A stretch of 64,000 nt of DNA from an uncultured virus (IMG/VR IMGVR_UViG_3300047323_000263) (taxonomy: Duplodnaviria > Heunggongvirae > Uroviricota > Caudoviricetes > Schitoviridae): the IMG/VR virus record IMGVR_UViG_3300047323_000263, one strand, 5' to 3'. This document shows, piece after piece, positions 2,543 to 34,700 of this stretch; positions within the stretch are counted from its first letter, which is position 1; each line of letters starts with the position of its first letter. Under the pieces are notes generated by a model. It was not told the origin of the DNA, did no database searches, and saw only the letters and a program-made list of their open reading frames with translations. Position numbers and translations under genes: made by a program.

Positions 2543-3223
2543 ATGCTGACTCAAGAGATGGTGGTGCGGGCTCTCCCGCCGAACCTCAAGGGCGCAGCCA
2601 CGCAGCAGCTGGTCGACATGGTGAACAACGTCGTGACCGATCCGCTGATTGCCGAGCAGGTGCGCAACAACTTCATCTCGTACACCGGGGTGCTGAAAGA
2701 CGGGAAGTTCAAGACCGAGGACTACCTGAACGCGGTGACCTACGTCAGCTACAAGCTGATGGGGGATTCGAACCAGGACGCCTACTTCAAGACCTTCCCC
2801 CAGCGCTACCAGGCGCTCACCGCCAAAGGCGCCACGACCAAGGAGATCTCGGCCTACGTCTCCGCCTTCAACAAGGGCAAGCTCGTCAACCTGATCCTCG
2901 AGCAGAGCCTGGTGCCGACCTGGGTCTTGAACCAGGACATCCACCAGAAGGCGATCAACCGTCTGTCGGATCTGATGATGACGGCCGCCAGCGAGAAGGT
3001 GCAGGCAGATGCCGCGATCGGACTGCTCGCTCACCTCGCCAAGCCGAAGGAAGCAGGGCCGCTCGTGAACTTCAACGTGCCGGAATCCTCGGGCATGGCG
3101 GAGATGAAGGAGCTGCTCGGCAAGATGGCCGCCCAACAGCAGGCACTGATTGCTCAGGGAGTGACGGCCAAAGACATTGCCGCGCAGAAGATCATCGACG
3201 TTGAGGTGAAGGAGCTTCCGTAA
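2543..3223 (+). CDS. N4 gp69-like protein (putative terminase small subunit)
   Basis: Immediately upstream of and coupled (TAATG) to TerL; size and synteny as in N4-like phages. Confidence 0.75.
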   Translation: MLTQEMVVRALPPNLKGAATQQLVDMVNNVVTDPLIAEQVRNNFISYTGVLKDGKFKTEDYLNAVTYVSYKLMGDSNQDAYFKTFPQRYQALTAKGATTKEISAYVSAFNKGKLVNLILEQSLVPTWVLNQDIHQKAINRLSDLMMTAASEKVQADAAIGLLAHLAKPKEAGPLVNFNVPESSGMAEMKELLGKMAAQQQALIAQGVTAKDIAAQKIIDVEVKELP

Positions 3224-4815
3224 TGCCACTGATCAAGCAAGAGTTGGATGAGTGGCTGGATCAGGTCGACTACAAAGAACTGAACTCTCCAAACTACAAG
3301 CCGAGTGTGTTCGCACTCACTTTCATGAACTTCATCAAACTCGTGAACGGCGAGACTGGAGAGAGCCACAAGACACCGCCTGTTCACCTGAAGATGCTGG
3401 ATAAGGTGGTGGAGTCGAACTCTGATTACATTGCAAACCTCTGTTTCCGGGGTGCAGCCAAAACTACTCTGTTCATGGAGTATTTCTGCCTGTTCCTCGG
3501 AATGTTCGGACACTTGCCAGGGTTCGGCAAGGTTGAAGGGATGATCTACGTCTCTGACTCAATGGACAACGGCGTGAAGTCTGCGCGAAAGAACATTGAG
3601 TTCCGATACAACAACAGTGAGTTCCTGCGCGAGTGGATTCCGAAGGCGACCTTCACTGACAACTACATCGAGTTCGAGAACAAGGAAGGCCATCGCCTGG
3701 GCATCAAAATGTTCGGCGCGAAAACTGGCTTGCGCGGTACGAAGATCTTCGGCAAGCGCCCCGTGTTATGCGTGCTCGATGACCTGATCTCGGATGACGA
3801 CTCGAAGTCCAAGGCCGCGATGGATGCGATCAAAGACACCGTTTATAAAGGCGTGAATCACGCCCTCGATCCGACCCGTCGCAAGGTGGTGTTCAATGGC
3901 ACGCCCTTCGCCAAGGAAGACATCCTGATCGAAGCGGTGGAGTCCGGTGCCTGGGACGTGAACGTGTGGCCGGTGTGCGAACGCTTCCCGTGCGAGGAGC
4001 ACGAGTTCGTCGGCGCATGGGAGGATCGCTTCACGTTCAAGTACGTGAAAGAGCAGTACGAGATGGCGGTGAAGACCGGCAAAGTCGCGGCCTTCATGCA
4101 GGAACTGATGCTTCGTATCACGTCCGAGGAAGAGCGCCTCGTGCAGGATGCGGATCTGCGCTGGTACAACCGCAAGAATCTGCTGGCGAACCAGAGCAGT
4201 TTCAACTTCTACATCACCACCGACCTCGCAACCTCAATTAAACAGACCGCTGACTTCTCCGTGATCAGTGTCTGGGCGTACAATTCCAACGGGGACTGGT
4301 TCTGGGTTGACGGCATCATCGAGCGTCAGAAGATCAACAAAACATTCGACGATCTTTTCAGGCTAGTTCAGCAGTACAAACCACAGCAGGTTGGCATCGA
4401 GATCACCGGCCAGCAAGGCGCCTACATCTCATTGCTCCAGACTGCGATGCTGGACCGGAACATCTGGTTCAACTTCGCCAGCTCGGAGAAGAGTGGCGAA
4501 CCTGGTATTCGGCCGATCACCGACAAGCTCTCCCGCTTCAATCTGGTTGTTCCTTGGTTCAAGGCGGGCAAGTTCTACTTCCCCGAAGAATTGAAGCTGT
4601 CGAAGACGCTCGGTATCGCAATGGGTCAGCTCCGGCTGGTCACCTCCAGCGGCATCAAGGGTAAAGACGACTTCATCGACACTGTGTCGATGCTCGGCTA
4701 TCTGAAGCCGTGGAAGCCCTCGGAATCCGCGCCGGCGACACCGACTGAAGTGTCGATCTACGAGGAAGAAGAGCAGCAGGGCGAACCGAGCGGACTGTCC
4801 GCTTATATCGTGTGA
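3223..4815 (+). CDS. terL: Terminase large subunit (N4 gp68-like)
   Basis: Walker A-like RGAAKTT, GLRG..LCVLDD Walker B, GTP coupling motif, nuclease ITTDLA..DFS..KDDFID. Confidence 0.95.
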   Translation: MPLIKQELDEWLDQVDYKELNSPNYKPSVFALTFMNFIKLVNGETGESHKTPPVHLKMLDKVVESNSDYIANLCFRGAAKTTLFMEYFCLFLGMFGHLPGFGKVEGMIYVSDSMDNGVKSARKNIEFRYNNSEFLREWIPKATFTDNYIEFENKEGHRLGIKMFGAKTGLRGTKIFGKRPVLCVLDDLISDDDSKSKAAMDAIKDTVYKGVNHALDPTRRKVVFNGTPFAKEDILIEAVESGAWDVNVWPVCERFPCEEHEFVGAWEDRFTFKYVKEQYEMAVKTGKVAAFMQELMLRITSEEERLVQDADLRWYNRKNLLANQSSFNFYITTDLATSIKQTADFSVISVWAYNSNGDWFWVDGIIERQKINKTFDDLFRLVQQYKPQQVGIEITGQQGAYISLLQTAMLDRNIWFNFASSEKSGEPGIRPITDKLSRFNLVVPWFKAGKFYFPEELKLSKTLGIAMGQLRLVTSSGIKGKDDFIDTVSMLGYLKPWKPSESAPATPTEVSIYEEEEQQGEPSGLSAYIV

Positions 4816-5531: not shown

Positions 5532-6533
5532 ATGAACATGCGCACTGTGAATGACCCGCTCGGCGGGGAAGCCGGCCTTGTCGATAAGTTCCTCGGCAAC
5601 GCCTACGACACGGTTCGCCACGTCGCGCTGAACATCGCCTACGTGAAACACGTCTCCTCGCAGTTGAAGGACGTGTATCTCGTGGCCGAGTCGTTGGCCG
5701 ATGTGGTAGCGGTGTCGGGCAGCTTGACGGACTTGAAGAGTGTGTCTGCGGTTCAGGCGCAGGTGACGGCTGTGGCAGCACAGCTCGATAACCTCACCTC
5801 GATTGCGGGCTCGCTCTCCAAGCTCGTCGACCTGCGCACCAACATGACGAGCCTGCTCGATCTCCAGAGCAACGAGTCGGCGCTGGTCGACCTGCACTCG
5901 CACCAGAACCAGCTGCTCTCGGTGTACGGGTCGCTCGCTTCCGTCTCGGCGGTGAACGACAAGCTCGCCCAGATCGGCACGGTCTTCAACAACCTGGCCG
6001 ACATCGTGTCAGCGGGTGACAACGTGGCTGCGATCGTCGCCGTCAACCAGGCGCTCACCCAGTTGATCTCGGTGCAGGGCCAGCTGACGATGCTCACCAC
6101 CATCAGCGCAAATCTGACGGATATCGTCGCGGTCGGCAACAAGATCGCGGACGTGTCCGCAGTCGCCGCCGATCTGACGAAGCTCGATGCGATCTTCGCG
6201 GACCTGGCCCAGCTCGAGGCGATCTACACCAACCTCGATGCGCTGACGACCAAGCTGACCTCGCTCCAGACGCAGAAGACGCTCACCGGCGTCGCCCCTG
6301 CGAACGGCGCCTCGGTCAATCTTCCCCTTGGCTCGGATGCCCCGGCCGCCAACGTCGCCGCAGTCTCGGTGCGCCTGACGGGCACCGACGGCAGCGTCTA
6401 CTTCCCGGACGGCACCAACCTGATCGTCAAGATCACGGGCACGAACGTGGTGGTGTCGCTCGGCGCTTCGGCCCCGGCTGCGTACACGACTGGCGCGGTG
6501 AAGGCGCTGGTCAGCTACACGCCGTCGGCGTAA
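5532..6533 (+). CDS. Tail appendage/fibre stalk protein with about 20 decad (10-residue) coiled-coil repeats
   Basis: N4-type anchor GLVDKFLGNAYDTVRHVALN, 10-aa periodic core, small beta-rich C-domain. Confidence 0.7.
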   Translation: MNMRTVNDPLGGEAGLVDKFLGNAYDTVRHVALNIAYVKHVSSQLKDVYLVAESLADVVAVSGSLTDLKSVSAVQAQVTAVAAQLDNLTSIAGSLSKLVDLRTNMTSLLDLQSNESALVDLHSHQNQLLSVYGSLASVSAVNDKLAQIGTVFNNLADIVSAGDNVAAIVAVNQALTQLISVQGQLTMLTTISANLTDIVAVGNKIADVSAVAADLTKLDAIFADLAQLEAIYTNLDALTTKLTSLQTQKTLTGVAPANGASVNLPLGSDAPAANVAAVSVRLTGTDGSVYFPDGTNLIVKITGTNVVVSLGASAPAAYTTGAVKALVSYTPSA

Positions 6534-6542
6534 GGAGAGGAG

Positions 6543-8774
6543 ATGAGCGAATACAAAGACATCTCCGCCTTCGAGCTGAGTGAACAGTATTCGAGCCGGG
6601 TGATCCATGACGACCAGTTCCAGGCCCCGTACCGGGGTGACCTGAAGCCGGACGCCATCACCTTCGGCTCGATCGTGACCGGCAGCCAGTCGGCCGACGT
6701 GACGGCAACGCTCACGAACATGGGCTTCCGTCCGCTCCCGGTCGAGGAGATCAAGATCTCGGGCGACTTCCTCTACTCGACGGACTGCCCGGTGGGCGGC
6801 GAGCTGGGTGTAGGCAAGACCTGCTCGATCGTGCTCAACTTCAACCCGTCGTCGGCGGGCCTGAAGCAGGGCGGGCTTTACGTGAACACCGGCGACGCAC
6901 AGGGGGCAGAGTTTGTCGGGCTGCTCGGCTACGGCGTGGCTTCGGGCAAGGGTGTGGCTGGACTCTCGGCCTCTTCCCTTTCCTTTGGCTCAGTCGATGT
7001 GGGCGTGAGCTCCGACACAAAAACCGTCACCTTGGTCAACAACGGCGACGTGGACCTGGCGGTGAAGACGCTCACAGTCTCGGGTGAGTTCTCGCTGACG
7101 AGCTCGCCGGCTGTGCCGACCACGCTTGTCTCCGGTGCGTCGATGGTGATCTCAGTGAAGATGACCCCGATCTCGGCTGGAGCCAAGAGCGGAACAGTCA
7201 GCATCGGCCACGACGGATCCGGTTCGACCAGCATTGCGCTGTCGGGCACGGGTGTCGCTGCTGGCACGACGCCGGTCATGTCGATCTCGGACGCGATCAT
7301 CGAGGCCTACCAGAATCAGGCCACGGTGACGAGCTCGGTCACGGCACTCGCCTTCGACACGACCGAAACCGGTCACAGCTCGGTCGCCAAGTCGGTGCTG
7401 CTCACCAACTCGGGCCTGCTCGATGCGACCATCACCGGTGTGACGCTCTCGAACACCACTGACTTTTCGCTCTCGAGCGACTCGGCAACGGTGGGCGATG
7501 CGGTGCCGGCATCCGGTACGGCGCTGCTGCGGGTGCTGTTCAATCCGAGCGCAGGCGGCGCACGCACGGCGACACTCACGGTGACCACCGATGCGACCTC
7601 CGGTTCGAGCTTCATCATCCCGCTCTCGGGCACGGGTGAAGTGGTGTCGACCGATCTCGCCCGGCTGGCGATCAGCGGCAACCAGTTTGTGCTGGCCTCC
7701 GACCCCTCGAGCACGGTGCGTCTGAAGTCGATCAACTGGTTTGGTGCCGAAGGCACGAACTACACGCCGCACGGTACGTGGCTGCGCCCGTGGAAAGCGA
7801 TCCTCGACGACATCAAGGCGATGGGTTTCAACTGCGTGCGTTTCCCGTTCTCGGGCGACACCTGCACGGTCGGCCGCACACCGCCGACCACCGCCATTGA
7901 CGAAGTGGCCAACCCTGACCTCGTGGGCCTGAACAGCCTCGAGATCCTCGACCTGTACTTCGACTACTGCAACACGATCGGTCTGTACGTGGTGCTCGAC
8001 CACCATCGCCGCACGGCGGGTGACGGTGCCGACGGCTCGCCGGTGGACAGCAGCTACACCGAAGCGCAGTGGCACGCGGACTGGCTGGTGATGGCCAACC
8101 GCTACAAGGCGCACCCGGCTGTGGTGGGCGCTGACCTGCACAACGAACCGCACGACCTCACCTGGTCGCAGTGGGCCACTTACGTGGAGAGCTGCGCGAA
8201 TGCGATCATTGCGGTCGCACCGCTCTGGCTGTACTTCGTTGAAGGCGTCGGCACCAACTCCGACAGCACCTCGACCTGGTGGGGCGGTGCGTTGAAAGAC
8301 GTGGCGACTCGTCCGATCGTGTTGTCGGTGGCGTCGAAGGTGGCCTACTCGCCGCACGAATACGGCCAGTCGACCGGCTCGCAATCGTGGCTGTCCACCG
8401 ACTCGAATGCAGTGTCCGGCTACCCGAACAACCTCTATGCCGTGTGGGATGCGAACTGGGGCTTCATCTACAAGAACAACCTCGCTCCGATCTGGATTGG
8501 AGAGTTCGGGGGCAAGTTCGGTGTGGATGGATCGGGCAACGCCACGCAAGCCAACGGCACGGTGGAAGCACAGTGGGTGACCAACCTCGCCAAGTATCTG
8601 AATGGCGACTTCAACGGTGACGGTACGAGCGACATCGCCACCACCAAGAAGGGTATGAGCTTCGCCTTCTGGGCCTACAACCCGAACTCGTCCGACACGG
8701 GCGGTCTGGTCGAAGATGACTGGACCACGCACCAAGCCGTGAAGGTTTCTCTCCTGGCTCCGCTTCTGACTTAA
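6543..8774 (+). CDS. GH5 endoglucanase (cellulase) with three N-terminal ASH/choice-of-anchor-D Ig-like domains; probable virion depolymerase
   Basis: NWFGAE..PHG, GFNCVRFPFS, LDHH, DLHNEPH (acid/base Glu), WWGG, YSPHEYG, IWIGEFG (nucleophile Glu), FWAYNPNSSDTGG; three L.FG...VTL.N.G...F.P...G.....L....G.G repeats. Confidence 0.93.
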   Translation: MSEYKDISAFELSEQYSSRVIHDDQFQAPYRGDLKPDAITFGSIVTGSQSADVTATLTNMGFRPLPVEEIKISGDFLYSTDCPVGGELGVGKTCSIVLNFNPSSAGLKQGGLYVNTGDAQGAEFVGLLGYGVASGKGVAGLSASSLSFGSVDVGVSSDTKTVTLVNNGDVDLAVKTLTVSGEFSLTSSPAVPTTLVSGASMVISVKMTPISAGAKSGTVSIGHDGSGSTSIALSGTGVAAGTTPVMSISDAIIEAYQNQATVTSSVTALAFDTTETGHSSVAKSVLLTNSGLLDATITGVTLSNTTDFSLSSDSATVGDAVPASGTALLRVLFNPSAGGARTATLTVTTDATSGSSFIIPLSGTGEVVSTDLARLAISGNQFVLASDPSSTVRLKSINWFGAEGTNYTPHGTWLRPWKAILDDIKAMGFNCVRFPFSGDTCTVGRTPPTTAIDEVANPDLVGLNSLEILDLYFDYCNTIGLYVVLDHHRRTAGDGADGSPVDSSYTEAQWHADWLVMANRYKAHPAVVGADLHNEPHDLTWSQWATYVESCANAIIAVAPLWLYFVEGVGTNSDSTSTWWGGALKDVATRPIVLSVASKVAYSPHEYGQSTGSQSWLSTDSNAVSGYPNNLYAVWDANWGFIYKNNLAPIWIGEFGGKFGVDGSGNATQANGTVEAQWVTNLAKYLNGDFNGDGTSDIATTKKGMSFAFWAYNPNSSDTGGLVEDDWTTHQAVKVSLLAPLLT

Positions 8775-8788
8775 AGGACCACTTCAAC

Positions 8789-11200
8789 ATGCGACAAGCA
8801 CGCTTTACCGTTTCGCTGAGTGCAGCGAGCGATAAAACCGTGTCAGTCAACTACGCCACCGTCGATGGGACGGCGGTGGCGGGTACGGACTACACGGCCA
8901 AGACGGGCACCTTGACCTTCGCTCCAGGCGAAGTTTCCAAGGACATTCTGGTGCTGATCCGAGACGAACTCACCGGCTCCGCCGATGAGGCCTTCACGGT
9001 TCATCTCTCGACCCCGACCAACGCCACGCTGGCTACCTCGAGCGCGGGCAGCTGCGCCATTCCGGGAGATCCGGATGCGCTGCCGTCATACCTCGATCGT
9101 TTCCACACGATGTACACGGACATGAAGACGCCGGCCAACGGCTACTTCGGGCCGAAGACCGGCACGTACGCGTACTCGGTGCCGTACCACTGCATCGAGA
9201 CGCTGATCTGCGAAGCGCCGGACTGGGGCCACGAATCGGTGTCGGAAACGGCATCCTTCTGGGTGGGCCTCGAAGCATGGAAGGGTCTGCTCGATGGAGA
9301 CTGGACCGGCTTCAACAAGGCGTGGACGACGATCGACGGCGTCTATGTGCCAAGCACCGCCAACCAGCCGGTGAACGTCTACTTGCCGAGCTCGCCCGCT
9401 GACTACACGCCCGAAGGCGACACGCCCAACGCTTACCCGACACTGGGTGATCCGAACGCGGCCAAGGGTGTGGACGGTCTGTATCAGGAGCTGCTCACCA
9501 CCTACGGCACCAAGGGCGTCTACCTGATGCACTGGATCGTTGACGTTGACGGGGCCTACGGTTTCCACAACGGTGACGGCGCCACGACGAACGTCTACAT
9601 CAACAACTACCAGCGCGGTCTGCAAGAGTCGGCGTGGGAGACGATTCCGCAGCCGGAGTGGGAAGACTTCGACTTCGGCAACGCCTACGGCTACCTGCCG
9701 ATTTTCAGTCAGGGCACGCCCACGTATCCCGCCGCGGCGAACGCTTACGGCAAGCAGTGGCGCTACACATGCGCACCGGATGCTGAGTCCCGTGCCATTC
9801 AGTGGGCGTTCTGGGCCAACAAGTGGGCCACCGCTGGCGGTGCTGCATCGTCGGTTGCGACCTCGATGGGCCGGGCCAAGAAGATGGGTGACTACCTGCG
9901 CTACTGCCTGATGGACAAGTACTTCCGTCAGATCGGAACGAACCGGGCGCTCGGCTCGACCAGCACGAACCCGTACCTCGCCTGCCATTACCTGATCGGC
10001 TGGTATGCGAGCTGGGGCGGCCAGGTGCCGGACACCGACGGCGGCAATTACTGGAGCTTCCGCATTGGATCCAGCGAATGCCACTTCGGCTATCAGGCTC
10101 CGGACGCGGCCTACTACATGGCCACCGGTGGCGGCGGCATCACGCCTCAGTCGGCCTCGGCCGGCGACATCTGGCTGGGCTCGCTCTACCGCCAGCTCGA
10201 GATGATCCGCTGGTTGCAGACGGCCAAGGGTCCGATTGCCGGGGGTGTGTCGAACTCGTGGAATGGTCGCTACGAGACGCCGGGTGATGGACGCGATGCG
10301 TTCACCTTCTACGGCATGCACTACACGTATGCGCCGGTGTGGCACGATCCGCCGTCGAACAACTGGTTTGGTTTCCAGGCATGGGGCCTGGGCCGGGTGG
10401 CTGACCTGTACCTGGAAGTCGCGGACAAGTCGGGCACGCTGCAATCAAACGTGCGCAGCAACTGCGGCGTGATCCTCGATCGCTTCGTGGGCTGGGTGCT
10501 GGCCAACGTTTCAGTCGATGTGACGGCGGGCACCTTCGTCTTGCCCGACACGCTGAACTGGACGAGCCCGACGCAGATCGCCGGCAAGACGACGACCAAG
10601 GCCAACCTCGAAGGCGTCTTCGAGTACATCCCGTCGGCGGCGTGGGATGGCACGCAGGACCAGGCTACGTTCTGGTCGGGCTCCTCGGTGCCGAACCCCA
10701 ACCTCGATTTCACGGTCGTGGCGACGGGCCAGGATCTGGGTGTGGCAAGTTCGCTGTCGCTCTTGATGATCCACTACGCCCAGGCGAAGCGCCTGCTCGG
10801 TGCGTTCGACACGGCGATCCCGAACTCGGCCAAGACCCCGCGTGATGCGTACACGCTCGCTCGCAACCTGATCGACATCATCTGGAAGACCTGCAAGGAT
10901 GACGTGGGCATTGCGCGCACCGAAGGTCGTGGCGACTACAACCGCTACAACCAGCAGCTCTACGTGCCGTCGAACTACAGCGGCACGATGCCTAACGGCG
11001 ACGTGATCAACTCGAGCTCGACGTTCATCTCGATTCGCAGCTGGCAGAAGACGGATCCGGACTGGCACAAGATTCAGGCCTACCTGGACAACCCGTCCGA
11101 TGCGACGATCCCGCAGTTCACGTACCACCGTTTCTGGGCGAATGCTGAGTACGCGATGTGCTGTGGCGCTCTGCACCACTACTTCGCAGACATCAACTAA
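8789..11200 (+). CDS. GH48 cellobiohydrolase/processive cellulase with an N-terminal (truncated) Calx-beta domain
   Basis: VPYHCIETLICEAPDWGHESVSE, MHWIVDVD, NNYQRGLQESAWETIPQP, QWRYTCAPDAE, PVWHDPPSNNWFGFQAW, FTYHRFWA; Calx-beta VSVNYATVDGTAVAGTDY..GTLTFAPGE. Confidence 0.93.
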   Translation: MRQARFTVSLSAASDKTVSVNYATVDGTAVAGTDYTAKTGTLTFAPGEVSKDILVLIRDELTGSADEAFTVHLSTPTNATLATSSAGSCAIPGDPDALPSYLDRFHTMYTDMKTPANGYFGPKTGTYAYSVPYHCIETLICEAPDWGHESVSETASFWVGLEAWKGLLDGDWTGFNKAWTTIDGVYVPSTANQPVNVYLPSSPADYTPEGDTPNAYPTLGDPNAAKGVDGLYQELLTTYGTKGVYLMHWIVDVDGAYGFHNGDGATTNVYINNYQRGLQESAWETIPQPEWEDFDFGNAYGYLPIFSQGTPTYPAAANAYGKQWRYTCAPDAESRAIQWAFWANKWATAGGAASSVATSMGRAKKMGDYLRYCLMDKYFRQIGTNRALGSTSTNPYLACHYLIGWYASWGGQVPDTDGGNYWSFRIGSSECHFGYQAPDAAYYMATGGGGITPQSASAGDIWLGSLYRQLEMIRWLQTAKGPIAGGVSNSWNGRYETPGDGRDAFTFYGMHYTYAPVWHDPPSNNWFGFQAWGLGRVADLYLEVADKSGTLQSNVRSNCGVILDRFVGWVLANVSVDVTAGTFVLPDTLNWTSPTQIAGKTTTKANLEGVFEYIPSAAWDGTQDQATFWSGSSVPNPNLDFTVVATGQDLGVASSLSLLMIHYAQAKRLLGAFDTAIPNSAKTPRDAYTLARNLIDIIWKTCKDDVGIARTEGRGDYNRYNQQLYVPSNYSGTMPNGDVINSSSTFISIRSWQKTDPDWHKIQAYLDNPSDATIPQFTYHRFWANAEYAMCCGALHHYFADIN

Positions 11201-13021: not shown

Positions 13022-15331
13022 ATGCAGATGACCAGCACTGACCAGGTGCTTCCGCGCACGCCGGATGAGGCAGCGCGCAAGCTCACGACCTGGAAGAACG
13101 AACCCACGATTCAGACCTTCAAGGGCGACCTCGAGAACTCGAAGTCTGCCCACGATGCACACGTCGCCAAGGTCCAGAAGTGGGACGACCTGATGAACGT
13201 GAAGGGCGCAGCCAAGCCCCCGAAGGTGAAGGGCCGCTCCCAAGTCCAGCCGAAGCTGATTCGCCGGCAGGCCGAGTGGCGCTACGCTGCGCTCTCTGAG
13301 CCTTTCCTTGGCTCAAACAAACTGTTCCAGGTGACGCCCGGTTCGTGGGAAGACACGAAGTCGGCCCAGCAGAACGAACTCGTCCTCAACTGGCAGTTCC
13401 GCACGAAGATGAACCGGGTCCGGTTCGTCGATCAATACGTGCGCTGCACGGTAGACGAAGGATCGTCGGTGGTGCGCCTCGGCTGGAAGCGGGTGACCAC
13501 GAAGATCAAGCAGCAGGTGCCGGTGTTCGCGCACTACCCGGTCGAGAGTCAGGAGCAGCTCATGCAGCTGCAACAGGACATCTCGCTGCAACAGAGCGAC
13601 CCGAAGGCCTACGGCGCTCTGGCGTCTGAGCGTCAGTCCGCGGTCGACTACTACAGCGAATCGCAGCAGCCGACCTATGCCGTGAAGACCGGCATGCAGA
13701 CGATCACGACTGATCAGCTGGTGGAGAACCGGCCGACGGTCGACGTGATCGATCCGCGCAACTTCTACCTTGACCCGTCCTGTGACGGCGACTTCGACAA
13801 GGCGCTCTTCGCCATCGTCACGTTCGAGACGAACCGGGCCGAGCTCCAGAAGGAAGGCGACCGCTACAAGAACCTCGAGCAGGTCAACTGGGAAGGCAAC
13901 ACCACGGTCACCTCCCCCGACCATGCCACCCAGACGCCGGACACCTTCAACTTCACCGACAAGGCGCGGAAGAAGGTCGTGGCCTACGAATACTGGGGCC
14001 TCTACGACATCGAAGGCACGGGCGAGCTGGTGCCGATCGTCTGCACGTGGATCGGTGACACCATCATCCGTCTGGAGAAGAACCCCTTCCCCGACCAGAA
14101 GCTGCCGTTCATCGTCGTGCCGTACCTGCCGGTCAAGCGGCAAGTGTTCGGGGAAGCCGATGCGGAGCTGCTCGAAGACAACCAGAAGATCCTGGGCGCG
14201 GTGACGCGCGGAATGATCGACCTGCTCGGCCGCTCGGCCAATGGCCAGCAGGGTTTTGCCAAGGGCATGTTGGACCCGTTGAATCGCCGTCGCTATGAAG
14301 ACGGCAAGGACTACGAGTTCAACCCGAACACCCCGGTCCAGCAAGGGCTCATCGAGCACAAGTTCCCGGAGTTGCCACAGTCAGCGCTTTTGATGTTGAA
14401 CCTTCAGAACCAGGAAGCAGAGGCTCTGACCGGTGTGAAGAGCTTTGGCGGAGGCATCTCTGGGGAAGCATACGGCGACGTTGCTGCTGGAATCCGGGGT
14501 GTACTGGATGCCGCCTCCAAGCGCGAGATGGCGATCCTTCGCCGCCTCGCCAAGGGCATGAGCGACATCGGTACGAAGGTCATCTCGATGAATGGCGCCT
14601 TCCTGTCGGACAAGGAAGTGGTGCGCGTCACGAACGAGCAATTCGTCACGGTCGAGCGTGATGACCTGATGGGCAACTTCGACACCATCTGCGACATCTC
14701 CACCGCCGAGGTGGACAACCAGAAGGCTCAGGATCTGGCCTTCATGCTGCAAACGCTCGGACCCAAGGGTGACTGGGGCATGGTCGCGCTCATCCTCTCG
14801 GAGATCGCACGCCTGAAGCGTATGCCTGAACTGGCACACCGCATCCAGAACTACCAGCCGCAGCCCGATCCGATGCAGCAGCAGCTCCAGCAGAAAGAGC
14901 TCGAGAAGGTTCAGTCGGAGATCGACAAGAACAAGGCTCAAGCCGATCTGTTCGAAGCGCAGGCAAAGATGGCCGGTACGCAGACGGACCTGAACAACCT
15001 CAACTACGTCGAGCAAGAGACGGGCACCAAGCACGCCCGCGACATGCAGAAGCAGCAGGCGCAGTCCGAAGGCAACCAGGATCTGGAAGTCACCAAGGCG
15101 CTGCTCGCCAAGCGCAAGCAGGCCAACGGTGGCGAGTCGAAGCCCGACATTCACGCCGCTGTTGGGTACAACGAACTGACGAAAAACCGGGCGAATGCTG
15201 GACAGCCCGATGCGCCGGAATCTACAATCACGCGAGATAACTTAGCGGAACAGAACCCGCAAATGTCCCTGGGATCCAAGTATTTTCAACCCTCGATGGA
15301 TCCCTCCCTCAATCCTAACTTGAACGTCTAA
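13022..15331 (+). CDS. Portal protein (N4 gp59-like)
   Basis: KLTTWKNEPT, GRSQVQPKLIRRQAEWRY, EAEALTGVKSF, LDAASKRE motifs; 769 aa. Confidence 0.93.
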   Translation: MQMTSTDQVLPRTPDEAARKLTTWKNEPTIQTFKGDLENSKSAHDAHVAKVQKWDDLMNVKGAAKPPKVKGRSQVQPKLIRRQAEWRYAALSEPFLGSNKLFQVTPGSWEDTKSAQQNELVLNWQFRTKMNRVRFVDQYVRCTVDEGSSVVRLGWKRVTTKIKQQVPVFAHYPVESQEQLMQLQQDISLQQSDPKAYGALASERQSAVDYYSESQQPTYAVKTGMQTITTDQLVENRPTVDVIDPRNFYLDPSCDGDFDKALFAIVTFETNRAELQKEGDRYKNLEQVNWEGNTTVTSPDHATQTPDTFNFTDKARKKVVAYEYWGLYDIEGTGELVPIVCTWIGDTIIRLEKNPFPDQKLPFIVVPYLPVKRQVFGEADAELLEDNQKILGAVTRGMIDLLGRSANGQQGFAKGMLDPLNRRRYEDGKDYEFNPNTPVQQGLIEHKFPELPQSALLMLNLQNQEAEALTGVKSFGGGISGEAYGDVAAGIRGVLDAASKREMAILRRLAKGMSDIGTKVISMNGAFLSDKEVVRVTNEQFVTVERDDLMGNFDTICDISTAEVDNQKAQDLAFMLQTLGPKGDWGMVALILSEIARLKRMPELAHRIQNYQPQPDPMQQQLQQKELEKVQSEIDKNKAQADLFEAQAKMAGTQTDLNNLNYVEQETGTKHARDMQKQQAQSEGNQDLEVTKALLAKRKQANGGESKPDIHAAVGYNELTKNRANAGQPDAPESTITRDNLAEQNPQMSLGSKYFQPSMDPSLNPNLNV

Positions 15332-25747: not shown

Positions 25748-28700
25748 ATGCCATCTGCGCAAGACCTCCTCAATGAGAAACTTGGACTGTCAACAGGTCC
25801 AGCGGGGCTCTCTCCAACGCCCGCAGACACCGCTTATCAGCAAGGCGTGCAAGCAGCCAACGCACAATTGCGTCCGAATCTGACGCCGGCCGCACCGACT
25901 GCTGCCGACCAGCGCTTCAATGCCGCACAGCAGGGTGCGGATCAGGGGCTGCTCGACGGAATCAAGCGCTTCTTCCCCCAGAAGCCGACCAAGCAGCAGG
26001 ATGTGGCGGCCACGGCGGACGCCAAGCAGGCGTCGCTCGCCCAGACGGCCGATGCCAAGAAGGCCGAGCTCGCCCAGCAGACCGGAGCGCCGGCAGTCAA
26101 CATCACCAACGACCAGATGTACAACGCCGTGCTGGCACGTCGCACGGGTGATGGCCTGAACTCGATGCCGTCACAGGCCGAAGCGGACATGGCGAGCATG
26201 TCGCCGCTCGATCTGATCAACAAGTACGGCTACGACCGTGGCACGCAGCTCATGCAGCAGCGCACCGATGCGCGCAACACCCTCTCGGGTGAATCCACCT
26301 ACGGCGATCGCCGGGTAGTGAGCGGCATTGCCGACTTCGGTAAGGGTGTGGGCCTCGGTGTGGCCAACTCCGTCGGCGGCATGGCAGCACTCGGCGCGGG
26401 CATCCTGAACAAGGACGCCGGCACTCAGATCGCTCGTGGCGTGTCGGATCTCAACGACGCAGTGCAGGGCAGCGAGACGCCGCAGATGCAGGCTTCGCGT
26501 CGACTGAACGCGGCGAAGAATGCACTCGGCTACCGGGACAACCGAGCCCAGTACGCCACGGATCTCGAGCAGTACGGCACGGTCGGTGCGGACATGCGCC
26601 GGGTCGTCAATGACGCAGGCACGGCAGTCGGCAATGCGATCGACGATCCGCTCGCGTTCCAGGACGGCACGGCTCAGGGCTTGGGCTCACTGGTGACCGC
26701 AGGCCCGACCGGCAAGCTGATCGGCGCAGGTGCCAAGGTGGCGCTCGCCGCTGCCCCGGAGCTCGGCATTGCTCCTTCCCTCTTGGCTCGAGCAGCTGCA
26801 TCCAAGACCGGCCAGTACATCGCGCACGAAGGCCCGACGATGGCCGCCATCGGTGCGACTGAGGCGGGCGGCGCCTACCAGCAAAATGCCTCCGATGTGG
26901 TGAAGCAGTCCTTTGAAGATCTGGCTAAGAACAGCCCGATGTTCAAAGAACTGGTCGCCTCGGGCATGAGCAAGGAAGAAGCTCGCACGACGGTAGCGAA
27001 CCGCTCGGGCCTGATCGCTGCCGCTATTCAGGCACCGATGGCTGTGGCGGCCGGCGCAATCGCCTCGAAGTTCGAAGCGAACCCGTTCTCGGTGCCCAAG
27101 CTGCGTGACATCGGCAAGAACGTCCTCAAGGAAGGCGTCGAGGAAACGATTCAGTCTGGCACCGGCCAATGGTCGCAGAACGTCGCCACGCAGCATACGG
27201 CCAACGAGAATCAGGATCTGCTTGAGGGCGTCGGTGAGCAGGCTGGCCTGGGTGGCCTCTACGGCATGTCCTCGGCAGGTGCCACGCAAGGTCCGGGCGC
27301 GGTGTTCTCCCATACGGTGAGCACGGCACTCAAGGCCGGTCAGGCTGTAGCGGGTGCCGTCGGCAAGATGGCTGACAAGGTGCAGGAGCGCAACGACCGC
27401 AACTCGCCGGTGGCTGATCACATCGTCGCGCAAGCGGCGACCGAGTTCGAACATAATGCGGCCACCGCTGGCCAGCAGGCGATCGATTCGGTGCAGGCCT
27501 CCAACCTCTCGGACGAGAAGAAGGCCACGGCCAGCCAGTACATTCAGGATCTGGTCGGCTCCTCGCAGTTCGATCCGAAGGAGATGGAAGGTGCGCCGCA
27601 GCCGCTGATCGATGCAGTGGGCAATGCCACCACGCGGGTGGGCATGCTCCAGAACCTGCTCTCCTACGCACGCAATCAGGAGAACCCGCACGACGTTCGG
27701 GCAATGGCCTACGGTGTCTTCAAGGAAAACCTGGACGCACTGCACCAGAAGGTTGCTGAAGCACCGGTGCAGCTCGAAGGCCTCCCGCACGACGACGCCG
27801 CGGTGACGTTCGCCTCGCAGATCCAGGATCTGGCAGGCAAGTGGCTTGACACGCCCTCAGCGGTTCGCGCCAAGGAATCGATTCAGAAGTCGCTCGACAA
27901 GATCGTGTTGCCGGAGCTCAACGAAGAGTCGATCCAGACCGAAGAAGGTCAGCATGGTTTGCAGACGGCGCTCGCAATGGCCACCATCGATCCGTCGAAG
28001 ATGCCGGCCGCTGCTGTGCAGTCGATCAATGAGCTCGCCGCCAAGGGCAGGCTGCGTCTGACCAGCCAGCAGGAAGCGGGCATTCGCACGGCGATGGGCA
28101 TCCTGGCGGGCCGCGAGAAGTACGTGAGCGAGCTCCAGGCGAATGGCCTGAATGCGCCCAAGGACATCGTGGCGGCGCAGGTGTCAACCGATAAGGGATC
28201 GCCCGAAGGCAAGGATTCGGCGGCAGTACATCTGAACGCGATTCGAACGGCGTATGCGTCGGGTGATCGTGAAGGTGCCAAGACTGCGCTCTCCCACTTC
28301 GGCAAGTTCGCGCAGACGCTCCAGAACAAGGTGAGTGCGGTCAATTCCCAGATTGCGACTCACGGAGCCCAGTCGAATGACAAGAACTCGCTCCACTACG
28401 ACACTGTGAGCCGGGACAAGACCAAGTGGAACAAGTCGAAGCGCCCCTTCGGTGTCACTCCGCAGTCCCCCACCTCCGTCAAGTTCGTGCAGGAAGTTCA
28501 TGCGGAGGCGAAAGCGCTCACTGCTATGCACAATGCTCTGGCTACGGCGTATCCGGAGTTGGGTGTTAGTCATATGGGTCAGGTCGATTTGCATCCGTCG
28601 CTTACCGGTGCTCACCCGCGTGAAGTTGCTCAGGAGTGGAAGCAGGGCAAGCGCACGGTTGACACGTCAAAGGTTGATGGGGAGCCTGCTGCGCAGCCCA

Positions 28701-31700
28701 CCGAGTCTACCGCGACTCCCACTGAATCGAAGCCTGCTGAAACAGAAACTAACAAGCCGACGGAAAAGCCCGCCGATGTTGCCTCTCAAGACCTAGGTTC
28801 CAAGGAACCTAGCAAGGTAGGAGCCAAGGAAGAGAGCAAGTCGCAGGGCAATGCCGAGCGCCTGGCCAAACTCACGGACAAGCAGATCGAAGCGTCGATC
28901 AAGGGCCTCGAGGCAATGGACAAGGCCGGCACGATCACGTCTGCCAATGCCGAGCTGCTCGACAACCTGCGCTGGGAGCAGCAATCCCGTGTGCCGGCTG
29001 AAGCGAAGCCGGCTGCTACCGTCACCGATGAAGGGACCAAGCCGCAAGTCACTGAACAGAAAGCAGAACCTGCTGCTGAAAAAGTTGCGACTGTTGCTGA
29101 TGAAGCCACGGATTCGACCACTCACGCAAAGGTCGGTGACGCTCATGCGGACAACGCTGTTGCTCAGGCGTACCCGGACCTGATCAATCCCGGCACGGGC
29201 AACCGCTTTGTCACGGCATTCTCGCTGCCGAACACGGCACGCTCGAACCTCGCCGGATCGGAGAATCCGCTGGAGACGGTCAACCAGGCGCTGCGCTCGG
29301 AGTCGAGCTTCGCTGCGATGGCGGCGGGCAAGATGAAGGCCGGCTTCGATCTGACGGTGGGCCGCAACTACCGTGACTTCCTTTCCTTGGTTCCCGGCAT
29401 CGTCGACGAGATCGGCCGGCACATGCAGGCGTTCCTCGACCAGACCCCTGAGAAGGGCAAGCAGGCGGGCACGTCGATCGAAGAGGCGCTGCACCTGGCC
29501 GAGATCGATCCGCACCGTTACCGCCAGGGCAAGCTCCTGAACCTGGCCGTGCAGAATGCCGACGGCACGCTGTCGCTGCACCAGGGCCTGATGCAAACGG
29601 CGGTGCTCGCCGGCATGCAGTGGCTGCTCACCGCGCGCAACAACGTGGGCAAGCTCGATGAGAAGAAGGCCGCCAACATTCTCGGCATTGACGAGAGTGA
29701 AGTGCGTGATGGCATGGTCGATCTGCTGGAAGACGGCGTGCTGCGCCTCTCGGCTGTGCAGGCGCTCGCCGCGAAGATCACCCAGTACTGGGGCCTCACT
29801 GAGAACCGTGACGAGACAAAGGGCTTCACTGAAGGTATCGCCCAAGCGGCGGCCGCCGAAGTGTTGCGCACGCTCACGGACCCGAAGCTCACGGTGGAAG
29901 TGCCGGTTCGCAACCCGGACACCGGTGAAGTGGTGAAGTACCGCACGGTGCCGTTGCTTGGCGAAGAGACGCAATACTTCGACCGCGAGGCGAAGGTGTT
30001 CGTCGACCAGAAGAACGCGAACACGCAGGAGATCAACGTCCTCAAGCCTGCGTTCATGGAAGACCTCTCCGTGTACCCGGATGCGATCGAGCAGCTGGTG
30101 GCCACTGAGCCGGAGATGACGCACCACTTCGACCAGGATCTGCCGAAAGTGGCCGAGCGCCAGATGAACAACCCGGACGTGGAGAATACGTCCGAGCAGC
30201 GCAACATGATCGAGCGGGAGCAGAAGACCGGTCACTTCCTGAATGAACGGATGGCAGCGCTCTACACCGCGCTCGGTCTGCCCACGATTCTCGACATCTT
30301 CGGTGCAGGCGCGAACCTCGATCCGGAGTACGTGAACGTCGAGAACATGAAGACCCGTGACGGCCGCAACCGCACGATCTCCTCGGCATTCGAGACGGCG
30401 TTCGCCACAGTCGACGCACTGCGCCAGCACGCCAAGCAGGCGGGCAAGGATGCGGTTGATGTGGCGGTTCACTACGGCTACAACATCACCCGCGTGGGTC
30501 GCTTGCAGATGCTCGGCAAGTACAACCCGCAGTCGAGTAAGCTGATGCGCGAGCTGATCCTGCCGACGGTGGCCACACTCGATCTCACCGGCCGTCAGCG
30601 CCGTGCCTTTAACCTGGCTGTCGCTCAGGGGATCGGCGTGAAGGTCCACAATCTCCCGTACCGCAGCATGGTGCGCGAGATGAACAAGGAACTCGCCAAG
30701 ATGCGCCCGGCAATCGACGCGCTCAAGGAGTTCCAGAAGAGCGGCACGCTCAACACCGAGCAGATGAAGACTGGCCTCGGCAAGGGTGCGACGTTCGTGC
30801 AGCTGCACGCGCTGTCGGAGTTCGCTCGCTTTGAGGCAGCCACCGAAGCCGAGAAGAAGGCGTTCAAGACGCAGCTCTACCTCGAAGCCGACGGCATGAC
30901 CAATGGTCCGATCAACGCAATGGCGCTGCTCGGCACCGGCAGCTTTGCGCCGGAGTGGGTCGAGAACATGGGCCTGGGCGGACTGTGGTTTGGCGGTCTG
31001 AAGAACCAGACTTCGACTGCACAGCGCAACGGCAGCACGGACGATCTGTATCAGCGCCTCGCTACCATCACGCGCAAGAAAGTGATGGAGCTGCGCAAGG
31101 CACTGTCCAAGCCGATGCTCGATCAGCAGACGGCGCTCATCAAGCTGATGAACCAGCTCATGCCGAAGGATGTGGTGCTCACCGCCGACGGCGATCTGGA
31201 TCTCACGCGCGGTATCGCCAAGAACCCGCTGACGATCACGATCTACGGCTCGGGCTCGCAGGGCATCGCCGGCAAGCTCACCAAGGCGGTGACCGACGCC
31301 ATCTACGAAAAGATGACGCAGGCGCTGGAGTACAAGCGGACCAATCCGGATGCCACCGAAGCCGAGGCGATGTTCGGCCCCGGTAAGGCCGGCGAGGATG
31401 CGTATAAGCTCTTCAATGATTCGATCAAGTCGCTGATCACCCAGCAAGTCACCTATGAGTGGAAGCGTGGTGTGAAAGTCCGCGTGATGGAACAGACTGC
31501 GGGCCGCTTTGACCTGTCCCAAGGTTTCCAGGGTGCAACACTGAACGCGGAAGCCCACGCTTCGATTCAGGAGAACATGCACAATCTGTTCGTCGAGAAG
31601 ATGACGGATGCGATTGAGTCGGTGGTGGACCAGTCGGTGTTGAAGTCTGCTGACCGTATCCGCAAGGCCACGCAGGTTCAGTCGATTGTTCTTCAGCATC

Positions 31701-34700
31701 TGTTCGTGCAGAAGGTGAAGGAAGCGATCGTCAAGAAGAAAGAGTCGGACCCGAACTACAAGGGCGGCGACTTCCTGAGCCAGAACGAGCTGGATGCAAT
31801 CAAGAAGTCTCTCTCTTCCTTGGCTCCGATCATCGACACCGGCTCACAGCGCTTCTACGTGGCGGGCAACGAGAAGGCGACGATCGCCAAGGACAACAAG
31901 GGCGGCAAAGAGAACCTGGCCGGCTACGGTTACGCTCGTGCGTTCGATGACACGTTCGGCATTCCGGCGATGGTCAATGGTCCGTTCAATGCAGGCGTGG
32001 CCGGTATCCCGTTCCTGAACATCGGCATGGGCGACGGCATGATGATGCAGCACATCGCCAACTACCTGAACGCGCCGGAACGCACGCTCAAGATCTTCGA
32101 CGGCATGAACATGCCGCTCGATGCAATCGACGAGCAGTCGGTGATGGCCAACCAGGGCGTCTACGACTCGTGGCAGGGCAACCCGCTGCAAGCTGTGTCC
32201 AAGACGTTCGACAAGTTCATGGAGAACTGGAACGGCAAGGACGCCGGGTTCGGGGAGACGTTCGCGCGTGACATGCAGATCGCGCTGTATGGCTGGGGCA
32301 AGGACGGTCAGGGCCGCAATCTCCGGGATTTCCTCAGTGAGATGAAGCGGCTTCAGGCCGAGCTCAAGCAAACGGCACTGGAAGCCGAGGCACGTCACCG
32401 CACGATCGCACGGGTGAATACGTCGGTCGACCAGATGGCGGCCGCATCGTCGCCGTACCAGGTCACGGACAAGGAGTCGGTCACCGGCACGCCGGAAGAG
32501 GTCGCCGCACGTCTGAACGAGATCTACGCCGAAGAGCGTGCCAAGCTCACGAAGGAGCGCCCGCAGACGAGCGACTTCATCAAGTCGGAGCTGTTGCAGG
32601 GCGCGAACCAAGACAAGGATTCGGGTGTACGCATTCTGAATGGCGTGGGGCTGAACAATCTGCCGGGCCTGCTTGCTGACAAGATCCCGGCCAACATGAA
32701 GCCGTTGATCGACTCGGCGCTGCATGCGCTTCGCAACTCCAACACCCAGATCATCATGGGCACCCGCGAGCAGCTGATGAAGCATGCTCGACTCCACGCC
32801 GGCGCACTGGTTCAGGAAGGCATCTCGCGCGGAGACGTGCAGGGTATGTATGACCCGACCACAGGCCACCTGTGGATGATCGAACCATCGGCCGAAGTGC
32901 TCACGCACGAGCTGATCCATGCGGCCACGGTACGGATCATCGACACCTTCTACAAGGGCGGTGATCTCGGCAAGAACGCACGTGTGGTCCGTGACTCGAT
33001 CGGCAACATCGAGCAGCTGATGGGCCAGTTCCTCTCGCTCAACCCGGACGAGATGACGCCGGACCAGCGTGAAGCATTCGGCTGGCTGAAGGCACAGCTC
33101 GACCAACACGCCGAGATGGCAGAGAACGATCGCAAGGTCTACGACCTCTCCGAGTTCATTGCCTGGGCGCTGGCCAACCAGAACCTGGCGGCCGTCGGCG
33201 AAAAGGCGCAGGCCCCGGCGATCGTGCGCATCGCACGCCAGGTCGTGCAGTACCTGAAGTCGCTCTTCACCGGCAGCAACAAGCCGGAAGTGCTCTCGCC
33301 GCTCAATGACATCTTCAGCAACCTGCGCTTTAACACGCAGCTGATCATGGCCGCCCAGCCGACGCTGCGCGGGGTGATGGCCGATGTCGCACCGCTCGCC
33401 ATGCAGAACGCGACGTATGGTGACGATGAGCGCCTGGCTGAAGTTGGTCAGACGTTTGACCGCACGGTGGCTGACTGGGTGGACGACACGCCGGAAGTCT
33501 CGCTCGAGCGCGATCAGCGCAAGACGACGCTCTCCGACGCCGGCCAGATGATCGGCACGCTCTCGCGCCAGTTCGTCGGCACCTTCGGCATGAACATGCA
33601 GCAGGCGGTGGTCTTCAAGAAGATCATGACGGCGCTCGCCACCGAGGCCAAGTTCGACGGCAACGTGATGGCACGCATGCAGGATCTGTTCGCCCACGTG
33701 ACGAAGAACCTGACGGCGGAAAAGCTGATGGATCCGGTCAAAGCGGGCAAGGAAGGCTCGGACACGTGGGAACGCGAACGCAACTACGCCGCCGAGAAGC
33801 TCAACGCGATGCTCGGCCGCAAAGGTTCCTTGACCGATGCGGCGGGCCGCTCGACGCTCTTGCCGGCATTCGTGGCACTGGCGCTGACCAATCCCGATCT
33901 GCGCCGGGCACTGGCCGACATCAAGATGCCGACGACCGACAAGAGCAACGCCAGCTCGAAGACGGATGCGGCACTCGAAGACTTCGCCAGCAGCGTGATG
34001 CAGGCGCTGGGCCGCCGTCTCTCCGGAGAGGGCAAGGCCGAGAACGTGCAGCAGGCGATGGACATGATGGCCGAGCAGCTGCGCGAGATCGCAGATGACC
34101 AGCAGGCCTTCTTCGACCAGATCGCCAATCCGATCGGGGATCTCTCGGATCGGACCAACCAGATCGTGATCGACGCGATGAACTCGCTCGCACGCTGGGC
34201 CACCGGCAAGGCCGATGCGCTGCACACCCGCTACAACAACAAGCTCACCAAGCTGATGGCCACCGGAGCCAAGGTGACAGAGGCGATCGTCAACAATGAC
34301 GCAGCGGCGCAAGTGGCCGAGGGTGTGCTTTCGATGATCAACCGCGTGGACGGGTTCGCACCTTTCCGCGAACTGATCGGGGATATGGTCGGACGAACTC
34401 TGTCCAATGCCGCGGTCTACGACATGATCAAGACGGTGCGCTCGTGGATTCAGGCCGATCGCCAGCAGTATCGTGAGATCGTCCCGAACACGATTGCCGA
34501 GCAGTTCAGCCGCGAGCTGACCGAGGACGAGTGGTCGATGCTGCACCGGGCAATGGGCCGCACTGATCTTGCTTCCTTGGTTCAGGGCATGAGCCAGGAC
34601 GAAGTGCTGAAGCTCATCTCCAACTCCAAGGCGATGAAGGCGAAGGTGAGCGAGCTCGAGCAGGCAATCAAGGGCGCGGACTCCGCCAACTGGAAGCTCT

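Follow-up and report, generated by a model that had tools for sequence, protein, structure and literature searches.

Within the 64,000-nucleotide (64 kb) stretch of the uncultured virus IMGVR_UViG_3300047323_000263 analysed here, hereafter the window, two adjacent plus-strand genes encode a GH5 and a GH48 protein, and a single Calx-beta domain appears to be divided between them. The first gene (6543..8774; 743 amino acids (aa)), defined by its open reading frame (ORF), Pfam matches and homologues, encodes an endoglucanase-type tail protein, the proposed scaffold. It contains two immunoglobulin-like (Ig-like) domains of the ASH/HYDIN type (aa 34-118 and 144-231; 6642..7235, plus strand), assigned by Pfam PF22544 and PF15780 and by the beta strands of an AlphaFold2 (AF2) model. 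A third Ig-like domain, of the ASH/Cep192-D4 type (aa 262-365; 7326..7637, plus strand), matches PF22073, and AF2 places its strands from residue 261 onwards. The 23-residue linker between the second and third of these domains (ASH2 and ASH3) holds the peptide PVMSISDAIIE (aa 244-254; 7272..7304, plus strand), which has the features of an orphan Calx-beta strand A according to a strand-A matrix, its conservation and AF2 models of the monomer and the complex. We refer to it as the plug. The catalytic domain follows at aa 396-715 (7728..8687, plus strand; PF00150, Cellulase, E 4.7e-38). N534-E535-P536 and E654 are invariant in both alignments of GH5 homologues, in agreement with membership of this family; we take the NEP motif to provide the acid/base and E654 to be the nucleophile glutamate. 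The second gene (8789..11200; 803 aa) opens with a Calx-beta domain that lacks strand A, the socket (aa 1-92; 8789..9064, plus strand), as judged from Pfam, AF2, superposition on NCX1 CBD1 and homologues. The remainder is the GH48 catalytic part (aa 101-803 and the stop codon; 9089..11200, plus strand), where PF02011 (Glyco_hydro_48, E 3.5e-209) matches aa 101-605 and a second stretch. The two genes are separated by 14 bases: as read from the sequence of the junction (8774..8791, plus strand), an AAGGA motif (8774-8778) and a 10-nucleotide spacer precede the ATG (8789-8791). This gap occupies the region of the A-B loop of the Calx-beta domain.

A preliminary description of this DNA, made from the sequence alone, had noticed that the GH48 ORF opens with a Calx-beta domain starting at its second strand, and profile searches bear this out. 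PF03160 (Calx-beta) matches aa 4-79 at profile positions 24-100 of 119 (58.1 bits; cut-off 27), so that the match begins about 23 profile positions late. The domain is 45-59% identical to bacterial Calx-beta repeats and carries acidic residues around aa 59-67; a complete Calx-beta domain, with strand A in the same chain, is not present in the GH48 protein. No strand A is encoded in cis upstream of the GH48 ATG, where a TGA at about 8715-8717 limits the open frame to 23 codons, and ATG 8789 is the first ATG, GTG or TTG of that open frame. An alternative start or a frameshift that would supply strand A in cis was considered and rejected: the 23 upstream codons are not strand-like and the C terminus of the GH5 protein does not resemble strand A. 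The split is conserved. Strand A, positions 22-33 of the Calx model used on the homologues, is found in cis in 0 of 108 Calx-GH48 homologues, in all of which the Calx match sets in at residue 2-18 of the protein and position 36-50 of the model. These 108 come from 119 GH48 homologues examined; the other 11 have no Calx-beta domain and comprise fragments, Streptomyces CBM2-GH48 proteins and one fusion. The latter, a metagenomic protein of 1326 aa (P0181), joins GH5 (14-343), GH48 (391 to about 1090) and ASH (1092-1190) in a single chain without Calx-beta, and this covalent fusion implies that both enzymes are used as one physical unit elsewhere.

Modelled alone (13-row alignment), the GH48 N-terminal domain has six strands at a predicted local distance difference test (pLDDT) score of 86.6. 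The model superposes on NCX1 CBD1 (3gin_B) with a Z score of 13.1 and a root-mean-square deviation of 1.8 over 96 of 116 residues at 36% identity, and a Foldseek comparison to the NCX1/CALX CBD1 fold gives a template modelling (TM) score of 0.74. Model residues 1-96 align with 3gin_B from 387 to 501, leaving 20 of the 116 target residues unaligned, and every NCX1 CBD1 entry places chain residue 387 opposite model residue 1. The residues at the start of NCX1 CBD1 that stay outside the alignment form its strand A.

In canonical bacterial Calx-beta repeats, strand A is followed by a short acidic/Gly loop of the Glu-Gly-Asn type and then by strand B. The strand-A part is matched by the GH5 peptide, and the GH48 protein begins one or two residues ahead of strand B; owing to the split, its Calx-beta domain has no A-B loop. 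A homology search with GH48 aa 1-100 returned 2905 matches dominated by multi-repeat bacterial proteins, which were used for the canonical repeat profile only. The strand-A matrix was derived from 400 repeats sampled from 1001 distinct ones in 120 bacterial Calx-beta proteins, each extracted with 30 upstream residues and then aligned, and contained no phage sequence. Across all six frames of the window, the 9-column matrix ranks GH5 aa 244-254 first among 86,814 positions (16.3 bits; next 11.5), as does the 13-column matrix among 83,482 positions (14.4 bits; next 11.7). A hidden Markov model (HMM) of the strand-A-less Calx domain has a single match in the 64 kb, the GH48 N terminus (E 1.5e-47; next E 0.6). 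The best strand-A match in the window is therefore found in the gene neighbouring the only domain without a strand A, and the orphan strand that the preliminary description had located between ASH2 and ASH3 is confirmed at exactly those coordinates. As a general plug detector the bacterial matrix does not set every plug apart from noise, with scores of 7.0 for the motifs of the uncultivated phage G002 and 8.9 for the GH5 motif of phage Hena1 against noise of about 12. It also returns an 18.3-bit match in an unrelated upstream protein of phage phiEaP8 (L006:3-698), which has no counterpart among the top matches of the window and may be due to chance.

The plug is conserved well beyond the window. 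Homologues of the GH5 protein, 41-59% identical to it, occur in the Erwinia phages S6 (gp095), phiEaP8 and Hena1 and in metagenomes, and the GH48 protein is 55-72% identical to GH48 proteins of Erwinia phages. Among the 54 GH5 homologues that can be aligned across the linker, 51 keep the plug; S247 and S249 are invariant in alignments of four and then six GH5 proteins at 41-52% identity. The N-terminal 230 residues of the Hena1 GH5 protein are unrelated to those of the window protein, and similarity begins at the plug. The gene pair is present in Schitoviridae (S6, phiEaP8, Fifi and Kuerle phages) and in Vequintavirinae myophages (Hena1 and pEp_SNUABM_01); single-protein search yielded two loci, and alignment-based scans six viral and three metagenomic ones. 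The plug has also been multiplied. Two tandem plugs are found in the GH5 proteins of G003 and G002 and in the homologues P0292, P0312, P0327 and P0336, standing directly ahead of the GH5 domain in P0327, with no Ig-like domain between, and followed by a complete Calx-beta domain in cis in P0336. In P0325, a complete Calx-beta domain precedes three tandem plug motifs. A profile of the 51 plug segments falls on columns 21-33 of the canonical repeat, the strand-A columns, in the right register (P 0.0011). The shortness of the motif and an hhalign probability of only 21% for this profile against the canonical repeat would fit a chance likeness of an 11-residue peptide, but its top matrix rank, its place in the gene adjacent to the only socket, and its conservation and multiplication make such a coincidence scarcely credible.

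In the AF2 model of the whole GH5 protein, residues 241-258 form a coil with pLDDT below 50, bounded by strand 228-238, which closes ASH2, and strand 261-264, which opens ASH3. The preliminary description had itself raised the possibility that the peptide is part of an ASH domain; the segment is disordered in the model and lies outside both ASH2 and ASH3. We then consider the complex model, computed for GH5 aa 228-372 and GH48 aa 1-100 in three runs with three controls. It scores 0.70 (runs 0.69, 0.70 and 0.71), and the best of the three controls 0.08; the runs share at least 91% of their contacts, with a partner pLDDT of at least 79. Among solved complexes 116 of 157 reach the score mark applied, and among mismatched pairs 2 of 215; these counts are rough here, as the present analysis used its own alignments. 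GH5 242-257 is placed on the open edge of the socket in the register of an A-B hairpin. The modelled interface comprises GH5 residues 242-257 and 292 and GH48 residues 1-14, 18, 20, 22, 53-57, 71, 73, 76, 78-82 and 84-92. GH5 245-253 is predicted to pair antiparallel with GH48 strand B (aa 4-11), the surest residue pairs (GH5:GH48) being 247:9, 248:8, 246:10, 249:7, 250:6 and 253:4; their practically constant index sum indicates antiparallel pairing with strand B, as in the canonical A-B hairpin. Further contacts of the plug are made to the last-strand region of the GH48 N-terminal domain (aa 78-92). The model supports the geometry of pairing, as distinct from binding itself.

These models also bear on the idea that the peptide plays a structural part within the GH5 protein itself, as an inter-domain or oligomerization strand whose likeness to strand A is convergent. 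It does sit between two beta-sandwich domains, a setting in which extra edge strands are common. However, the monomer model leaves 241-258 unstructured; only GH5 242-257 and 292 touch the partner in the complex model, where ASH3 does not take up the strand; and the profile of the segment matches Calx-beta strand A with the correct register. We consider an internal role highly improbable.

We propose instead that the GH5 protein tethers the GH48 protein by complementing its split Calx-beta domain in trans with a beta strand, and on the basis of the models and sequences we put the probability of this at roughly three in four. The two genes would then encode a two-enzyme tail appendage. The GH48 protein, beginning at strand B, would present an N-terminal beta-sandwich with an open edge and an unfilled place in its core, while the GH5 linker between ASH2 and ASH3 would expose the missing strand A (aa 244-254) as a free peptide. 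On meeting, the plug would pair antiparallel with GH48 strand B (aa 4-11) and touch the last-strand region (aa 78-92). Once the fold is complete, the GH48 enzyme would hang off the GH5 protein as a side branch. The N-terminal part of the GH5 protein presumably binds the virion. The data establish the split, its conservation and the predicted pairing register; actual binding, the stoichiometry, the position on the virion and an enzymatic synergy on host cellulose are what we infer from this picture. The proposal of the preliminary description that a GH5 strand completes the GH48 fold thus gains in silico support from the complex model (0.70 versus 0.08) and from the comparative data. Its characterization of the joint as free of cohesin and dockerin agrees with the Pfam searches, which found no such family in either protein at E <= 0.1.

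Sockets and plug-like segments are not confined to GH5-GH48 pairs. Sockets also head the EPS depolymerase and gp19 of phage PEp14, gp17 and gp14 of SopranoGao, and fibres of the uncultivated phages G002 and G003; a tblastn search with the socket matched 169 phage records, 98 of them over at least 80% of its length. Small proteins of 121-124 aa are encoded in G003 (L007:6413-6787), G002 (L011:9813-10184), SopranoGao (gp13, L004:7877-8242) and PEp14 (gp20, L018:9387-9752). Their N-terminal domain matches the first ~100 positions of the tail-fibre PHROGs 8469, 30299 and 6427, and their last ~12 residues resemble Calx-beta strand A, making them candidate adaptors that would offer a plug at the tail. 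In SopranoGao, the GH5 protein gp18 was inspected for a plug and none was recognizable; only the adaptor gp13 has a plug-like end. Phage phi92 has a 958-aa tail protein, gp141, with a strand-A-like C terminus, and the next gene, gp142, opens with a socket (L017:3116-6450), so that a stop codon, a ribosome-binding site and a start codon stand at the place of the A-B loop. Just after the GH48 gene, Hena1 (L009:6463-6816) and pEp_SNUABM_01 (L008:6439-6816) encode a 117-aa protein consisting of a socket followed by a C-terminal plug. The linker between the two is as short as that between tandem repeats. Judging from the topology of Ig-like sandwiches, the plug of this protein would be unable to reach its own domain and would be given to another socket. 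The protein may be an extension piece, similar to a pilin subunit.

This distribution bears on the possibility that the split is an evolutionary scar and nothing else. An ancestral gene with a whole Calx-beta domain would have been interrupted by an inserted ASH-GH5 cassette or divided in two; the orphan strand would be a relic without function, and the GH48 protein would be attached through other surfaces or not at all. Plug and socket do fit one canonical repeat, as expected after a simple cut; the complete cis Calx-beta domains beside the plugs of P0336 and P0325 make such ancestors plausible; and the socket is modelled confidently on its own. However, a functionless peptide would not persist in 51 of 54 homologues, some only about 41% identical, nor would it be duplicated or triplicated. 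The plug moreover recurs at the C termini of unrelated adaptors and of phi92 gp141, and strand A has been neither kept nor regained in any of the 108 GH48 homologues. We regard a functionless scar as unlikely. The insertion of a cassette, which the preliminary description had offered as an alternative, may describe how the arrangement arose, but it leaves the conservation and multiplication of the plug unexplained.

If plugs and sockets serve each other, their numbers within a genome are of interest. With sockets counted by HMM across whole records and plugs partly by position and eye rather than by score, the ratio of plugs to sockets is 1:1 in the window, phiEaP8 and S6, 2:2 in Hena1 and pEp_SNUABM_01, 3:3 in G002, 2:2 in PEp14, where one plug is weak, and at least 1:1 in phi92. 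Plug and socket counts agree in most genomes examined, not in all. A blind genome scan with an HMM built from GH5 plugs recovered the plug in the window with 20.9 bits (next 4.7) and in phiEaP8 with 18.6 bits (next 8.5). In Hena1 it returned 18.1 bits for the end of the small protein, on which it had not been trained, and 14.3 bits, with the next match at 6.2. In G003 its top match reached 17.0 bits (next 3.3).

The same counts help to judge whether the GH48 socket is filled by the plug of some other virion protein while the GH5 plug serves another socket. Proteins identical to the GH5 and GH48 pair sit on contigs of about 75.8 kb, and therefore about 11.8 kb of the phage lies beyond the 64 kb window, leaving room for such partners; in phages of the SopranoGao type, sockets are served at least partly by small adaptors, not by the GH5 protein. 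Yet the 64 kb contain a single socket and one plug (20.9 bits; next 4.7), the two genes co-occur in Schitoviridae and Vequintavirinae phages, and the GH5-GH48 complex model passes its controls. An exchange of partners is accordingly a distinctly improbable account.

Several observations weigh against complementation of the GH48 protein by the GH5 protein. The plug is missing in 3 of the 54 alignable GH5 homologues (P0284, P0285 and P0289), and the contig of P0289 equals in size that of a socket-headed GH48. With the socket modelled confidently as six strands on its own, the domain may be stable without a plug. The success of the complex model could merely reflect likeness to solved intact Calx-beta domains (NCX1/CALX CBD1 and integrin beta4), because the modelled pieces are two halves of one known fold. 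The ~11.8 kb beyond the window may hold a further plug or socket. The tally, which owes part of its plug counts to visual inspection, is 3:2 in G003, whose complete 60.6 kb record has two plug-like motifs in the GH5 protein (L015:267-3347, minus strand), one at the adaptor end (L007) and only two detectable sockets. It amounts to one clear plug for two sockets in SopranoGao, with a GH5 protein that shows no plug. Finally, the plug HMM missed the adaptor end in G003, scored the S6 plug at 6.5 bits, behind a spurious match at 8.1, and gave the G002 GH5 protein only 1.2 bits.

A broader view extends trans complementation from this gene pair to a general modular connector of phages, used across several families, with classes of plugs and sockets acting as a pairing code. 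We hold this view tentatively, with the odds somewhat against it. Anchor proteins would carry one to three plugs in the manner of a scaffoldin, and any socket-headed spike, fibre or enzyme could be hung on them. The small socket-plus-plug proteins would be extension pieces, plug and socket classes would decide where each enzyme is placed, and the GH5-GH48 pair would represent a cohesin-free viral mini-cellulosome.

The closest precedent is found in chaperone-usher pili (Fim, Pap, Caf1 and Saf), in which the missing strand of an Ig-like sandwich is supplied by another polypeptide, resulting in a very stable non-covalent joint. Similar to a pilus acceptor, the GH48 socket is an Ig-like fold without one strand; in the phage pair, donation by a second chain is a prediction. 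The 117-aa protein of Hena1, in which a socket is followed by a terminal plug, likewise resembles a pilin subunit. In contrast to pili, where the C-terminal strand G is missing and an N-terminal extension acts as the donor, the phage split removes strand A at the N terminus, and its plug lies inside a protein or at the C terminus. The phage fold is Calx-beta, its cargo is a tail enzyme or fibre, and no chaperone or usher is evident in the phage system, although no search was aimed at them. The proposed joint would be a form of a known principle, donor-strand complementation, in a new setting.

Branched receptor-binding complexes, such as G7C gp66/gp63.1 and CBA120 TSP1-4, are a second point of comparison. 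There, N-terminal adaptor domains serve to mount one tail spike on another. These are whole domains, whereas the GH5-GH48 joint would be a split fold; to our knowledge, and as far as the literature could be searched, no split fold has been reported for the G7C or CBA120 complexes. The functional analogy to cohesin-dockerin cellulosomes lies in the tethering of a GH5 and a GH48 enzyme and in the two or three tandem plugs, which resemble a scaffoldin. Unlike in cellulosomes, the phage joint would be formed by completion of a fold and not by a domain-domain contact.

Among phages, S6 has the same gene order as the window, with gp095 (GH5, 42% identity) and gp094 (Calx-beta and GH48, 58% identity). 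According to the accessible part of a commentary on this phage, S6 requires host cellulose and gp095 degrades carboxymethyl-cellulose (PMC9544554). The Calx-beta region of gp094 is described there as a whole N-terminal domain and the position of gp094 and gp095 in the particle as yet to be shown; a split domain or gp094-gp095 docking is not mentioned in that part of the text (PMC9544554). The pair of phi92 gp141/gp142 and the lateral tail fibre proteins of the rV5 type share with the window a socket-headed partner and a gene boundary in the A-B loop. They differ in that the phi92 plug is C-terminal, while in the window it is internal and followed by Ig-like and catalytic domains, so that an enzyme acts as carrier and its partner becomes a side branch. 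The accessible portions of the literature naming phi92 gp142 make no mention of a split domain. A full-text literature search found no link of donor strands or strand complementation to phage tail proteins, and no Calx-beta joint between tail proteins.

Limited understanding of how phages join several receptor-binding or depolymerase proteins hampers the rational exchange of tail spikes. If the proposed complementation is correct, the joint is small, consisting of an 11-residue plug and a 90-residue socket, is recognizable at the sequence level and seems portable across podoviruses and myoviruses. It would also account for the more than 100 GH48 tail enzymes and many other spikes that start in the middle of a domain annotated as a whole Calx-beta. 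An endoglucanase-type enzyme and a GH48 enzyme would be joined on a virus particle by a pilus-like rather than a cellulosome-like principle.

The remainder of the window identifies its source as an N4-like podophage, with genes for a terminase (3223-4815) and a portal protein (13022-15331) and a giant ORF. The latter (25748-36811) encodes 3687 aa, the size of the N4 virion RNA polymerase; the N4-like assignment rests on this ORF and on the genes for terminase and portal. No close DNA relative of the window was found among 50,697 phage records. In its core genes it shares about 81% identity with N4-like phages of Burkholderia and Achromobacter, and in the two-hydrolase region 67-75% with Erwinia phages of the phiEaP8/Kuerle type. 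Directly before the GH5 gene, at 5532-6533, lies a gene for a 333-aa protein that matches PHROG 29955, annotated as 'appendage' (E 6.4e-19), and this protein may link the GH5 protein to the tail.

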